DNA of 64,000 nt, from the NCBI GenBank assembly GCA_900320865.1, contig ONTT01000006.1, positions 19,285-83,284 of the forward strand. Direction: 5' to 3'. Below, piece by piece: positions 9,951-47,994 of the stretch; position 1 is the stretch's first letter, and each line of letters starts with the position of its first letter. A program made the translations under genes and the position numbers. The DNA comes from an uncultured Bacteroidales bacterium (GTDB lineage: Bacteria; Bacteroidota; Bacteroidia; Bacteroidales; Paludibacteraceae). Below the pieces are notes generated by a model that was not told the origin of the DNA, did not search any database, and saw only the letters and a list, made by a program, of their open reading frames with translations.

Positions 9951-9978
9951 TAAACTTTAAACTTTAAACTTTACTTCA
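9951..9978. repeat. Heptamer array (TAAACTT)x4 in the ftsK-lolA spacer
   Basis: Lies between the lolA ATG (9945-9947) and the ftsK stop (9971-9973), and covers that stop. Confidence 0.9.
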
Positions 9979-12619
9979 CTCCCAGCTCTTCGAGCAGTTT
10001 ATCCAGTTGATCCAGGTCCTGAATCAAGACGTCTCGTCCCTTCGGTCCTTTGTTCGGTCCCACGATACCGGCGGCTTCGAGTTGGTCACTTAACTTACCG
10101 GCGCGGTTATAACCGATTTCGAACGCACGTTGCAGACGCGAGGTCGAACCCTCTTGTTTGGTTACTACGTAACGGGCCACATCCGCAAACATCGGATCGA
10201 GACGTTTCATATCTACGCTACCCGGTGCGAGTGCCTCGCCTTCCCCGCCTTCACCTACATACTCCGGTAACTGATACGGTTCGGAGTAACGCTGCTGTTT
10301 GGCTATATGTTTGACGATCTCATCCACCTCGGGTGTATCGACGAACGCGCACTGCACACGGGTGATGCTGGCATTCCCGGCATACAACGAGTCTCCGCGA
10401 CCGATCAACTGCTCTGCCCCTTTGGCATCCAGCACTGTACGGCTGTCGATCACACTCTGCGTACGCAGCGCGATTCGCGTCGGGATATTGGCCTTAATGA
10501 CACCTGTCACGATGTTGACGGACGGACGTTGGGTAGCCAAGATCATATGCATTCCTACCGCACGGGCTTTCTGGGTGATACGCGCAATAGGCGTCTCCAC
10601 CTGTTTGCCGGCCTGCATGATGAAATCGCCGTACTCATCGATGATGATGACGATATAAGGCAGATATTGGTGATGCAGGCTGTCAGCCACTAACTTATGC
10701 GGGTTCAGGCGACGTTTGACGAACTTGTCGTTATAGTCCTCCAAGTTACGCACGCCGGCATCCATCAGCAGTTTGTAGCGGTTCTCCATCTCGATGACGA
10801 GGGAGTTGAGCGTATTGATGACGCGGTCGCAGTCGGTGATGACGATCTGCTCCGGATCGGTGTCCGGCATCGCCGCCAAGTAATGTTTCAACAGCGGTTT
10901 ATACGGCGCGAACTCCACCATCTTCGGGTCCACCATCACCAGTTTCAACTCCGCCGGGTGCTTCTTATAGAGCAGCGACGTGATGATGGCGTTGATGGCA
11001 ACGGACTTACCCGTTCCCGTAGCACCGGCTACCAGCAAGTGCGGCGTCTTGGCGAGGTCGAACATAAAGACCTCATTCGTGATGGTTCGGCCGTAGGCGA
11101 TCGGCAGACGCATCTTCTGCTCCTCCTGGAAACGCTTGGACGCGATCACCGAGTGCATGGAAACGACCTGAGGTTTCTCGTTCGGCACTTCAATACCGAT
11201 GGTACCTTTACCCGGCATCGGGGCAATGATACGAATACCCGTAGCACTCAGGCTCATCATAATATCGTTCTCCAGCACCTGGATCTTCGCCACGCGGATA
11301 CCTGCTTTCGGTACTATTTCATAGAGCGTTACGGTCGGACCGACCGTTGCTTTGATACTATCAATTTCTATGCCATAGTTGCGCAGGGTCGTTACAATTC
11401 GTGCTCCGTTCGCGCGCTGCTCCTCTTCGTTAATCACCGGCGCCGCCTCGTTGTCGTACACTTTGAGCAAATTCAGACTCGGGAACTTAAAGAACTCCAG
11501 GTCTTTGCGGGGATCGTACGGACCGAGTTTCGCCAACAGCGCATCGGGATCCTTAGTGTATAACTCATCTTCGTTCACATCCTCGATCTCCAGTTCCGGT
11601 TCTTTCTTCGTTCTTTTCTTTCCGCTCTCAGCTTTGGTCTCTTGACTCTTCTCTTTCTCCAGCAGGTCAGCCAGCGTACCGTCGGTCGGACCGCCATCAT
11701 CGGGCAGCGGTTCCTCTTCCGGTTCTTCCCCTTCTTCCTCGACGGACTCGTCCGACTCCTCTTCGCTCACCGGCTCAATGGTAAAGGTCACTTTGTCCTC
11801 ATCTCCTTCCGTTTTCGGTTTTTCTTCGGTCTCCTCGTCTACCAACGGAATATCGATCGTCACTTCATCATTCTCATCATTCTCATCATTCTCATCATTC
11901 TCACCATTCTCACCATTCTCACCATTCTCCGCCACTTTCGGTTTTTTCTTAAACAAACCGACGAACCAGAAGCCAAAGGCTTTGCAGCGATCGATGAACT
12001 TCGGATCGGTAACAATAAGGAAGATCACCAGTACGGCCGCTAAGATCAATACCATGCCGGTGATGTGTACATAACTCTCCATCTTCAGGGCTGCTGCATC
12101 GCCGAAACGACCGCCCCATCGGAAGGCGCCGATATGGGCCAGTTGCTGAATGAAACCCAGCACGATGGAACCCCAAAGCACCCAGAAAGCCGTGGTGCAG
12201 AAGATCTTAATGGCCTTGATGTCTTTTAATACATGCATAATACGCAAAGCGTACGTACCACACATCAGCACCAGCAGAATAGAGACAAAACCGAATGAAC
12301 CGTCAATGAGAAAACGCGCCAGGCGAGCACCCGGAAGACCCAATATATTACGAATCTCATGGCGATTCGCCACTTGGTCCGCATAGGCCTGCGAAAGCAC
12401 CGACTGATCGGCCGTGCCCGTGAACAGGAAACTCACGTACGCCAACAGCGCGATCACCGAGAACAACAGCAACAGCACACCGAGAATCATTCGCGTCTCG
12501 CGTGCCATCGCATAGTGCTTCAGCGTCATCCACCAACTCTCCTTCTCCACACGGATAGAGCGTTCTGCACTACGCTCATCGATGTCATTATTTTTTAACT
12601 TTGATACGGTTCGGGGCAT
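9971..12619 (-). CDS. ftsK: DNA translocase FtsK/SpoIIIE
   Basis: N-terminal TM domain, acidic linker, motor with Walker A GATGTGKS, C-terminal gamma winged helix (STSRLQRAFEIGYNRAGKL). Confidence 0.95.
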   Translation of the reverse strand: MPRTVSKLKNNDIDERSAERSIRVEKESWWMTLKHYAMARETRMILGVLLLLFSVIALLAYVSFLFTGTADQSVLSQAYADQVANRHEIRNILGLPGARLARFLIDGSFGFVSILLVLMCGTYALRIMHVLKDIKAIKIFCTTAFWVLWGSIVLGFIQQLAHIGAFRWGGRFGDAAALKMESYVHITGMVLILAAVLVIFLIVTDPKFIDRCKAFGFWFVGLFKKKPKVAENGENGENGENDENDENDENDEVTIDIPLVDEETEEKPKTEGDEDKVTFTIEPVSEEESDESVEEEGEEPEEEPLPDDGGPTDGTLADLLEKEKSQETKAESGKKRTKKEPELEIEDVNEDELYTKDPDALLAKLGPYDPRKDLEFFKFPSLNLLKVYDNEAAPVINEEEQRANGARIVTTLRNYGIEIDSIKATVGPTVTLYEIVPKAGIRVAKIQVLENDIMMSLSATGIRIIAPMPGKGTIGIEVPNEKPQVVSMHSVIASKRFQEEQKMRLPIAYGRTITNEVFMFDLAKTPHLLVAGATGTGKSVAINAIITSLLYKKHPAELKLVMVDPKMVEFAPYKPLLKHYLAAMPDTDPEQIVITDCDRVINTLNSLVIEMENRYKLLMDAGVRNLEDYNDKFVKRRLNPHKLVADSLHHQYLPYIVIIIDEYGDFIMQAGKQVETPIARITQKARAVGMHMILATQRPSVNIVTGVIKANIPTRIALRTQSVIDSRTVLDAKGAEQLIGRGDSLYAGNASITRVQCAFVDTPEVDEIVKHIAKQQRYSEPYQLPEYVGEGGEGEALAPGSVDMKRLDPMFADVARYVVTKQEGSTSRLQRAFEIGYNRAGKLSDQLEAAGIVGPNKGPKGRDVLIQDLDQLDKLLEELGVK
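11867..11929. repeat. 9-bp tandem repeat x7 in the ftsK linker
   Basis: ATCATTCTC x4 then ACCATTCTC x3; encodes ENGENGENGENDENDENDE. Confidence 0.95.
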
Positions 12620-47917: not shown

Positions 47918-47994
47918 ACTTTCTACTTTCTACTTTCTACTTTTTACTTTTTACTTTCTACTTTCTACTTTTTACTTTCTACTTTCTACTTTCA
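47918..47994. repeat. Heptamer array (ACTTTCT/ACTTTTT)x11 in the MFS-phosphorylase spacer
   Basis: 77 bp starting 1 nt after the phosphorylase ATG (47915-47917) and running into the last codons of the MFS gene. Confidence 0.95.

Follow-up and report, generated by a model that had tools for sequence, protein, structure and literature searches.

Heptanucleotide tandem arrays with rapidly changing units in intercistronic spacers of an uncultured rumen Paludibacteraceae bacterium

RESULTS AND DISCUSSION

The object of this analysis was a 64,000-nt stretch of DNA (the window) of an uncultured rumen Paludibacteraceae bacterium (assembly GCA_900320865.1, contig ONTT01000006.1, positions 19,285-83,284). 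Many of its intercistronic spacers are built of tandem arrays with a period of 7 nt. These arrays are specific to this period, enriched between genes, and polymorphic between strains in 7-nt steps with concerted change of their units. At orthologous sites the units are replaced while arrays persist, some arrays lie in frame within coding sequences, and their distribution among relatives is patchy but wide. We consider it likely that they are slippage-driven heptanucleotide simple sequence repeats (SSRs) of the long-SSR class of Mrazek et al. (2007), resembling in behavior the short tandemly repeated repetitive (STRR) sequences of cyanobacteria.

Period specificity and location of the arrays

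Exact self-matches at lag 7 running for at least 14 nt were found nine times in the window and not once in 50 order-3 Markov simulations. Relative to the same simulations, the other lags from 2 to 15 were not enriched, save for two coding arrays with a period of 9. The intergenic sequence of the window contained five strong lag-7 clusters compared to none in 200 shuffles, an excess for which an earlier note on this DNA had proposed to look; the remaining lags between 4 and 12 yielded no strong clusters in this test. When the arrays detected in the window by Tandem Repeats Finder (TRF) were masked, no residual lag-7 signal that could represent decayed arrays was left, and the arrays are therefore discrete objects rather than a diffuse periodicity.

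The comparison set comprised 80 Bacteroidales rnf neighborhoods of about 21 kb each, 1.39 Mb in total (loci L004-L083). The closest species representatives are metagenome-assembled genomes (MAGs) of uncultured rumen Paludibacteraceae/Bacteroidales with RnfC identities of 85-88%. Period 7 was the commonest (132 arrays), followed by periods 11 (51-53 arrays) and 12 (47 arrays). The window has 2.7 period-7 arrays per 10 kb, compared with 0-3.9 among close relatives. Over the 80 loci, their number ranged from 0 to 8 per 21 kb; besides the close relatives, lineages with high numbers included Candidatus Aphodosoma, part of the Parabacteroides, and others. Among named strains, Parabacteroides sp. ASD2025 (NZ_CP187555) and Bacteroides xylanisolvens XB1A have arrays in the vicinity of rnf. 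Intergenic regions make up 11% of this sequence and hold 75% of the period-7 arrays; arrays with periods of 9, 12, and 15 are mostly coding. The second commonest class, period 11, is 79% intergenic; its unit is close to one helical turn, and it may be a separate phenomenon.

A codon-usage-trained gene call gave 46 gene junctions in the window, with 27 spacers of at least 20 nt, and a period-7 array is present in 10 of these 27. Six of the eight co-directional spacers of 30-65 nt consist essentially of the array alone. The window arrays begin between 15 nt before and 2 nt after the upstream stop codon, which lies inside the array at seven of nine co-directional junctions, and six of them end no more than 11 nt before the next ATG. 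The earlier note was thus right about the overlap with stop codons, the proximity to starts, and the three junctions within the rnf operon. The distance from the array end to the start codon has a median of 18 nt and a lower quartile of 6 nt, and is often 3-9 nt; a short non-repeat motif is retained beside the ATG. In the Bacteroidales set, 103 of 104 intergenic arrays lie 5' of a start codon, and one is in a convergent spacer.

Some spacers of relatives contain two arrays in inverted orientation, for example, (GTCAATT)n facing (AATTGAC)n, which could form long hairpins. Such pairs occur at positions 630/748, 12162/12222, and 12855/12910 of L045, 623/663 of L050, and 4772/4825 and 10685/10717 of L063, as well as in the rnfC-rnfD spacers of L037, L039, and L040; none were seen in the window.

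Arrays in the spacers of the window

TRF recovered all ten spacer arrays described in the earlier note, with coordinates agreeing within 1-3 nt. Three of them belong to the rnf operon on the plus strand. The rnfB-rnfC spacer is filled with 3.4 AAATGTT-like units (13668-13696; TRF 13668-13692; 89% matches), the rnfC-rnfD spacer, including the rnfC stop codon, with 4.6 units of AATTACC/AATCACA (15058-15104; TRF 15058-15089; 80% matches), and the rnfE-rnfA spacer with 4.9 units of AAATATC/AAATTTC (17432-17466; TRF 17432-17465; 85% matches, or 100% if treated as a 14-mer). In the divergent region between ftsK and rnf, TRF found 4.1 units of AAAGTTG with 100% matches (12654-12682), located 34 nt 5' of the ftsK start; an array at this offset is also present in loci L011 and L012.

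The other spacer arrays are on the minus strand. An array of AAGTTTA (mRNA sense; 9951-9978; TRF 9951-9973; 100% matches) runs from the ftsK stop codon and precedes a LolA-like gene; the four units originally assigned to it were slightly generous, since TRF counts 3.3. The junction between the M49 peptidase stop codon and an ORF (open reading frame) with EPSP-synthase and GT2 domains holds 4.0 units of TAATTGG in the sense strand (26938-26967; TRF 26938-26965; 95% matches). The spacer between the DUF3467 and PNP genes is filled with 7.7 units of AAAAATC (sense; 29853-29908; TRF 29854-29907; 93% matches), the first of which includes the stop codon TAA. Five AGTTTAA-type units extend from a GT2 gene stop codon (30353-30388; TRF 30353-30387; 85% matches), and six degenerate AATTGAT-like units fill the spacer between the genes of RpiB and a Na/sulfate symporter (38970-39017; TRF 38970-39011; 68% matches). 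The longest array contains 11 units of GAAAGTA (sense; 47917-47994; TRF 47917-47993; 94% matches); it encodes the last four codons and the stop codon of a major facilitator superfamily (MFS) transporter gene and adjoins the ATG of a gene for a 999-aa protein.

Variation between strains and authenticity of the arrays

Contigs L001-L003 and L084-L096 were used for comparison between strains. Proteins of the window had exact matches in the rumen metagenome assemblies ERZ930613 (PRJEB21624), ERZ27279860, and ERZ1050859, STEW19 scaffolds, and Logan runs. Contigs L001, L002, L084, L094, and L095, obtained from other samples with other assemblers, differ from the window by 0-1 mismatch over each heptamer array they cover, including the 11-unit one. 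The check for assembly artefacts suggested at the outset therefore had a clear outcome: independent contigs reproduce the arrays, and an artefact is excluded.

The arrays are the main indel hotspots between strains, with size steps of 7, 14, or 21 nt. In four contigs diverged from the window by 0.3-1.3% (L086, L088, L092, and L093), 13 of 15 alignment gaps are in or beside arrays, and the clean gaps are 7 or 21 nt long. The DUF3467-PNP spacer exists as alleles of 34, 48, and 55 nt, which contain one, three, and four perfect AAAAATC units and are otherwise equal; the PNP protein (291 aa) is identical among the strains carrying them. The copy-number polymorphism that had been predicted is thus real. 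Length alleles of 21 and 22 nt were found for the array at 30353, and the rnfE-rnfA spacer of L003 contains a shorter array different from that of the window. At 38970, contigs L085-L087 have unrelated sequence or a gene overlap instead. The 11-unit array is unchanged in L094-L096, at 0.5% divergence, and a flank-anchored metagenome search for its copy-number variants found none.

Arrays also change their units in a concerted manner. The window carries (AAAGTTG)x4 at 12654, while L003, which is 98% identical, has (AAAATTG)x5 with the substitution in every copy. Similarly, TGGTAAT-TGGTAAT is replaced by TGAGAAT-TGAGAAT between strains at 26938, where the first unit, TGATAAT, is unchanged, being held by the stop codon. 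The older state is often retained in the first unit of an array. Slippage that outpaces point mutation would produce such concerted change.

Next to the array at 30353, a GC-rich, strongly structured insert of 138 nt (30215-30352, minus strand; minimum free energy [MFE] of -47 kcal/mol) separates the heptamers from the DUF3467 start codon. The window shares this insert with L084, L086, and L088, whereas L085, L087, and L089-L093 lack it, and the fetched loci contain no further copy. A permissive Rfam scan of positions 30150-30420 gave no credible match; the insert may represent a leader RNA that varies between strains or a small insertion.

Replacement of units at orthologous junctions

The rnfB-rnfC, rnfC-rnfD, and rnfE-rnfA junctions of species with 85-88% RnfC identity nearly all have heptamer arrays, built of unrelated units: AATTACC, ATTTGAA, AAATGGT, AATTGAA, AATTGGT, AAATGTC, or AAATCGT, and in more distant relatives, for example, AGTTTAA. 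In several close relatives, the genes are separated by 0 nt or overlap at the same junctions, and the spacers are therefore dispensable.

In L007 (9955-10000 and 11357-11388) and L010 (9948-9970 and 11357-11379), the spacers at two junctions of one operon start with TGACCAAATGGTCA, a perfect 6-bp inverted repeat (TGACCA..TGGTCA) overlapping the stop codon.

Counted without regard to strand, 93 co-directional arrays comprise 60 distinct units, most of which have one to three G+C. The earlier note had argued from recurring units for a family or a shared generating mechanism; a single sequence family does not agree with this diversity, and a shared mechanism, a bias toward 7-nt slippage, is the best explanation. 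Of the recurrences themselves, TAAACTT and AATTACC do occur twice each, but GATTTTT was found at four clear loci (207, 989, 26763, and 29853) and not at five. AATTACC occurs in each orientation relative to transcription, in line with the two orientations noted earlier. Some genomes have their own unit families, such as AAATGGT/AAATGAC at several junctions of L007, L010, and L012.

GAAAGTA arrays were detected in at least 120 metagenome contigs from many environments. Contigs picked for one such array (32-63% GC) contain further period-7 arrays of other units, 1.66 per 10 kb, which indicates a wide occurrence of genomes with numerous heptamer arrays of diverse units. Scans of viral contigs revealed (GATTTTT)x4 in 28 contigs and (AAAGTTT)x4 in 6, many from giant-virus bins.

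Arrays within coding sequences

TRF detected nine further period-7 arrays in the window, all inside ORFs of the minus strand and many of them in frame. Thioredoxin reductase (TrxB) contains two surface-loop sites with lineage-specific insertions. At site 1, a 21-nt repeat of three heptamers encoding PVTGNPS is present in 2.5 copies (9058-9110); the copy number differs between near-identical strains, L002 having one copy fewer. Site 2, directly before the GVFAAGD motif, is occupied by (ACCAATC)x5 in the window (8485-8519; 12 codons, YQSSMTNNQSPI), (NGTAACC)x5 in L005, and (TCAAATG)x5 in L010. The inserts of these three lineages thus have the same position and length, five units plus one base or 12 codons, and encode unrelated peptides; most relatives have no insert at this site. 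In the GH81 glycoside hydrolase, 5.7 GATTTGA-like units (40710-40748) encode KIQISNLQSTISNP, and 4.3 CTTTCGA-like units (44999-45028) lie near the C-terminus of the 999-aa protein.

In a 595-aa ORF (25154-26941, minus strand), a partial match to EPSP synthase (profile positions 196-343 of 417) is joined to a GT2 glycosyltransferase domain, and three arrays lie in frame: ATTTGTG x4.6 near the C-terminus (25246-25277), ATTGGAT x4.1 (26499-26527), and GATTTTC/GATTTTT x4-5 near the N-terminus (26763-26797). This fusion is kept in L084-L091 with a length of 576-595 aa.

The two remaining arrays, GATTTTT x6.6 (207-252) and GATTTTT/GATTGGT with a period of 7/14/21 (989-1038, inside ORF 805-1317), are in minus-strand ORFs without Pfam matches that precede a serine resolvase gene (1265-2020), the ORF with the former array lying next to this gene. 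The resolvase gene in turn adjoins tRNA-Met (2109-2183), and the region 6-2183 may be the edge of an integrated element.

Coding arrays keep the reading frame, having five units plus 1 nt or 21-nt units, and their units are GC-richer than those of spacers. Unit composition therefore follows local constraint at a constant period. On the sequence evidence, this pattern points to a mutational process acting everywhere, with selection as a filter, rather than to an RNA-level signal.

Origin of the arrays

The explanation that we favor is that DNA strand slippage preferring 7-nt steps creates the arrays and keeps remodeling them. Expansion and contraction would outpace point mutation, so that a change in one unit could spread through the array, and the unit sequence would drift while the position of the array persists. 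Selection would decide where the arrays remain. In a short intercistronic spacer, a 7-nt step would leave both neighboring reading frames untouched, and AU-rich, A-biased sequence would suit the Shine-Dalgarno-independent initiation of Bacteroidota; in surface loops of proteins, only frame-keeping numbers of units would survive. Our inferences are the causal role of slippage, the basis of the number 7, and effects on expression that are mostly neutral or mild.

Several observations weigh against in situ slippage as a full account. The preference for a unit of 7 nt is unexplained by our measurements. The presence of GATTTTT at four loci of the window exceeds the expectation from base composition, by our own estimate. 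Units containing stop triplets are commoner in the sense than in the antisense orientation (66 versus 48, P = 0.03), which is weak; units containing ATG show no sense-strand excess. The convergent (3'-3') spacers of the rnf-neighborhood set have 1 array versus 12 expected, which would agree with a function linked to gene starts. The latter depletion is only a hint, because the rnf junctions are orthologous replicates and the effect was lost in 46 mixed metagenome contigs that form an independent set (6 versus 7.7 expected).

In addition, junctions that are not orthologous, in the same or in different genomes, share identical irregular arrays of 23-41 nt. The rnfB-rnfC spacer of L007 and the rnfC-rnfD spacer of L010 have 41 nt in common, the rnfE-rnfA junction of L014 and an unrelated spacer of L008 share 32-36 nt, the window array at 30353 shares 28 nt with the rnfC-rnfD junction of L026, and an irregular stretch of 23 nt is common to the rnfC-rnfD junction of the window and the rnfE-rnfA junction of L006. 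Nine such pairs were observed compared to 0.375 expected under a simple null, in which the units and the number of deviations were kept and the deviations placed randomly; some of the nine may be shifted orthologues. Slippage in situ alone does not predict such sharing, and we therefore propose that arrays with similar units may occasionally be copied from one another by ectopic gene conversion or template switching. As a contribution to the slippage-driven process, this copying would explain both the genome-specific unit families and the recurrence of GATTTTT in the window.

Alternative explanations

The arrays could instead be selected tuning knobs of translation, which we consider unlikely. 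Each would provide an AU-rich landing pad for the downstream cistron, for instance, for ribosomal protein S1 on mRNAs lacking Shine-Dalgarno sequences, and its length, changing in 7-nt steps, would adjust translational coupling and, through it, the ratios of subunits. Their nearly exclusive location 5' of starts (103/104), ends at a median distance of 18 nt, frequently 3-9 nt, from an ATG with its own retained motif, recurrence at the same rnf junctions of different species despite differing units, and the 34-, 48-, and 55-nt alleles segregating among strains are all consistent with such a role. The arrays are also AT-richer than ordinary initiation regions (GC of 0.225 versus 0.273). However, at these junctions, close relatives lack a spacer altogether, AATTACC is found in both orientations, the same process makes arrays inside proteins, and the shortage of arrays in convergent spacers failed to replicate in the mixed metagenome contigs. 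The A-bias is that of ordinary spacers: A exceeds T on the sense strand in 55 arrays versus 33 with the reverse (62%), and in 385 versus 186 array-free spacers (67%). The idea put forward in the earlier note that the arrays act as unstructured leaders did not hold, since the initiation regions from -45 to +15 have a mean MFE of -4.1 kcal/mol with and -4.9 kcal/mol without arrays (P = 0.67), and the z-scores of folding energy for these regions do not differ either. A role in translational tuning is thus possible but unsupported by these tests. If the arrays did tune translation in Shine-Dalgarno-less Bacteroidota, they would represent a new layer of operon regulation.

A broader version, which seems to us improbable, would make the arrays a genome-wide self-renewing system in these Shine-Dalgarno-less bacteria, seeded at stop/start junctions, copied, and kept as length-adjustable AU-rich ribosome landing pads, whose 7-nt steps would adjust the relative translation of neighboring cistrons. 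It is hinted at by the identical irregular arrays at non-orthologous junctions together with the near-exclusive placement before starts.

It is quite improbable that the arrays form a dispersed copied family, in which new arrays would be mainly copies of existing ones produced by ectopic gene conversion, template switching, or insertion activity and would thus be paralogous. The shared irregular stretches of 41, 32-36, 28, and 23 nt, the nine pairs against 0.375 in the null, and the unit families specific to L007, L010, and L012 agree with this possibility. On the other hand, the units are mostly private (60 kinds in 93 arrays), strains differ by 7-nt steps or one-base concerted changes, as slippage in situ predicts, and the arrays showed neither terminal repeats nor target duplications nor genes associated with them. 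Besides, the random-placement null is perhaps too naive, and some of the nine pairs may be shifted orthologous sites.

Arrays of binding sites, either for a protein reading single-stranded RNA or DNA in 7-nt steps (with an oligonucleotide-binding fold of the cold-shock or S1 type) or for a DNA-binding regulator, are very unlikely. MacGregor (2015) proposed protein-binding arrays for the TAACTGA repeats, which have a similar position just 5' of start codons, and CspB binds one protein per heptamer, as reviewed there (PMC4679880); moreover, the palindrome TGACCAAATGGTCA is present in some arrays. Against this stand the high diversity of units with complete turnover between species, the presence of a single unit in both orientations, the arrays of GC-rich units in coding DNA, and the A-rich sense strands, whereas Csp proteins prefer U-rich sequences.

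Chance or an assembly artefact has a negligible probability: short-read assemblers can in principle miscount copies, but simulations gave 0 arrays versus 9 observed, identical arrays, including that of 11 units, were assembled from different samples by different assemblers, and arrays of 30-80 nt fit within one read.

Gene content and other variable sites of the window

According to Pfam, the genes flanking the arrays encode the resolvase, thioredoxin reductase, FtsK, the Rnf proteins, an M49 peptidase, a PNP-family phosphorylase, DUF3467 and GT2 proteins, RpiB, a Na/sulfate symporter, GH81, GH30, and GH16 enzymes, and the MFS transporter; a SusC/SusD pair is located downstream. An Rfam scan of the window at gathering thresholds revealed only tRNA and transfer-messenger RNA (tmRNA) genes, and the arrays had no match.

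The tmRNA gene (5498-5867) is a full-length Rfam match with 138.6 bits; L001 and L002, otherwise identical, hold 23 additional bases at 5678, CAAGCCGAGTCTGTGGGCTCAAT. In the 3' part of rnfB (13500-13600), about 60 nt near the end encoding the C-terminus are replaced in L003 by a shorter unrelated sequence (143 versus 138 aa); elsewhere, the operon is about 98% identical. The linker of FtsK contains a 9-nt coding repeat (ENG/END) in 7.2 copies (11865-11929), and L002 has one copy fewer.

Implications

This lineage is a clean natural experiment, since it combines dense arrays, many units, strain-level metagenomes, and junctions comparable from 0.3% divergence up to the genus. Arrays can overwrite gene ends and introduce hypervariable 12-residue loops into a housekeeping enzyme. 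For gene callers and strain typing in rumen Bacteroidales, spurious variation at gene ends and in spacers is to be expected; they could also be used to distinguish strains at high resolution if the arrays are taken as markers.

Comparison with known heptanucleotide repeats

In many prokaryotes, no class of long SSRs is more abundant than heptamers, for which an origin by polymerase slippage has been proposed (Mrazek et al., 2007, cited in PMC4679880 and PMC4692102). Heptamers in at least three copies (the 7n3 pattern) are over-represented in Bacteroidetes with a median of +0.75, and this phylum is among the few with a non-zero 7n3 median (Huang and Mrazek, 2014, PMC4060949, Table 2). The earlier note was aware of no equivalent in Bacteroidales; in fact, the phylum-level excess is published (PMC4060949) and Paludibacter propionicigenes is listed as a carrier of heptamer repeats (PMC4679880), while our literature searches found no detailed description of heptamer arrays in Bacteroidales. 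As far as the long SSRs are described in the cited accounts, they and the arrays reported here are alike in being over-represented tandem heptamers, mainly intergenic and patchy by lineage. Tandem copies of 5-11-nt units, three or more in number, exceed compositional expectation (9 versus 0 in simulations and 5 versus 0 in shuffles), non-triplet units are concentrated outside coding DNA (75% versus 11%), and copy number varies between strains by whole units (7- and 21-nt indels; 1, 3, and 4 units). In the same accounts, the surveys appear as statistics of cultured genomes, without the anatomy of Bacteroidales arrays, comparison of strains and orthologues, or an account of intercistronic and loop arrays.

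The arrays also resemble repeats known from individual lineages. The cyanobacterial STRR units are CCCCAGT (STRR1), TTGGTCA (STRR2), and CAACAGT (STRR3). Like the arrays described here, STRR form heptamer arrays of several unit types per genome at intergenic and intercistronic positions, such as pecE-pecF in Nostoc. The likeness to STRR drawn in the earlier note stands for behavior (short tandem heptamers, mostly intergenic or within operons, with several units) and fails for the units, none of which is tandem in the window. STRR reuse a few fixed units at many loci, whereas this lineage of another phylum has many private AT-rich units with rapid turnover. Reuse of the same unit is a trait of STRR; in the window, it extends to four loci for GATTTTT and to two each for TAAACTT and AATTACC, against 60 units in 93 arrays overall. 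An array of (CAACAGT)x11 was found in a distant Paludibacteraceae MAG (L041, 4978-5058); its unit is that of cyanobacterial STRR3, which is probably a coincidence. Another heptamer unit of Nostoc is GGGGAYT (PMC4692102).

Repeats of TAACTGA are located just 5' of start codons in marine Beggiatoaceae, in some cyanobacteria, and in five Bacteroidetes, one of which, Paludibacter propionicigenes, belongs to the same family as the window organism (MacGregor, 2015, PMC4679880); other heptamer repeats were described in spacers of the flavobacteria Gramella and Aequorivita (PMC4679880). The TAACTGA repeats are likewise mostly intergenic direct repeats in forward orientation, a few nucleotides from starts and also within operons, a position shared by the arrays studied (median 18 nt, lower quartile 6 nt; six window arrays within 11 nt). 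In that case, however, one unit is conserved, related heptamers are rarely repeated, and horizontal spread was suggested, while no unit dominates here: TAACTGA occurs as three single copies and no tandem ones in the window and as one doublet in the 1.39 Mb of relatives.

In Xanthomonas, arrays of GGGAATC are found at the same places between genes across related species, with wide variation in length and sequence (Rehm et al., 2015, PMC4692102). Some of them form inverted pairs, as in the spacers of several relatives of the window organism. The Xanthomonas repeats are G-rich, form quadruplexes, and follow one consensus, in contrast to the AT-rich arrays of many units considered here. Membership in the STRR, TAACTGA, or GGGAATC groups by unit was rejected, as none of these units is tandem in the window. 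CRISPR, repetitive extragenic palindromic (REP) elements, and miniature inverted-repeat transposable elements (MITEs) were rejected as well: such elements have repeats of 24-48 nt with unique spacers between them, or palindromic units with terminal inverted repeats, whereas the units here are 7 nt long and contiguous, and Rfam matched only tRNA and tmRNA.

In the contingency loci of Haemophilus, Neisseria, and Helicobacter, SSRs within reading frames or between promoter elements switch surface and restriction genes. The common features are slippage-prone tandem repeats and copy numbers that vary between strains. In contrast, the arrays of this lineage lie between housekeeping cistrons (rnf, PNP, and RpiB), running from the stop codon to before the next start, or are in frame and frame-preserving, so that no on/off switch is implied and assignment to this class was rejected. 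We know of no heptamer family with a demonstrated function.

The kind of element, a heptanucleotide SSR, and the phylum-level excess of heptamers in Bacteroidetes are thus already known. New are the lineage and the role of arrays as the fabric of intercistronic spacers and in-frame protein loops, as well as the direct evidence that arrays vary between strains in 7-nt steps, that their units are replaced in concert, and that their positions persist while the units turn over, together with a hint of copying between arrays.

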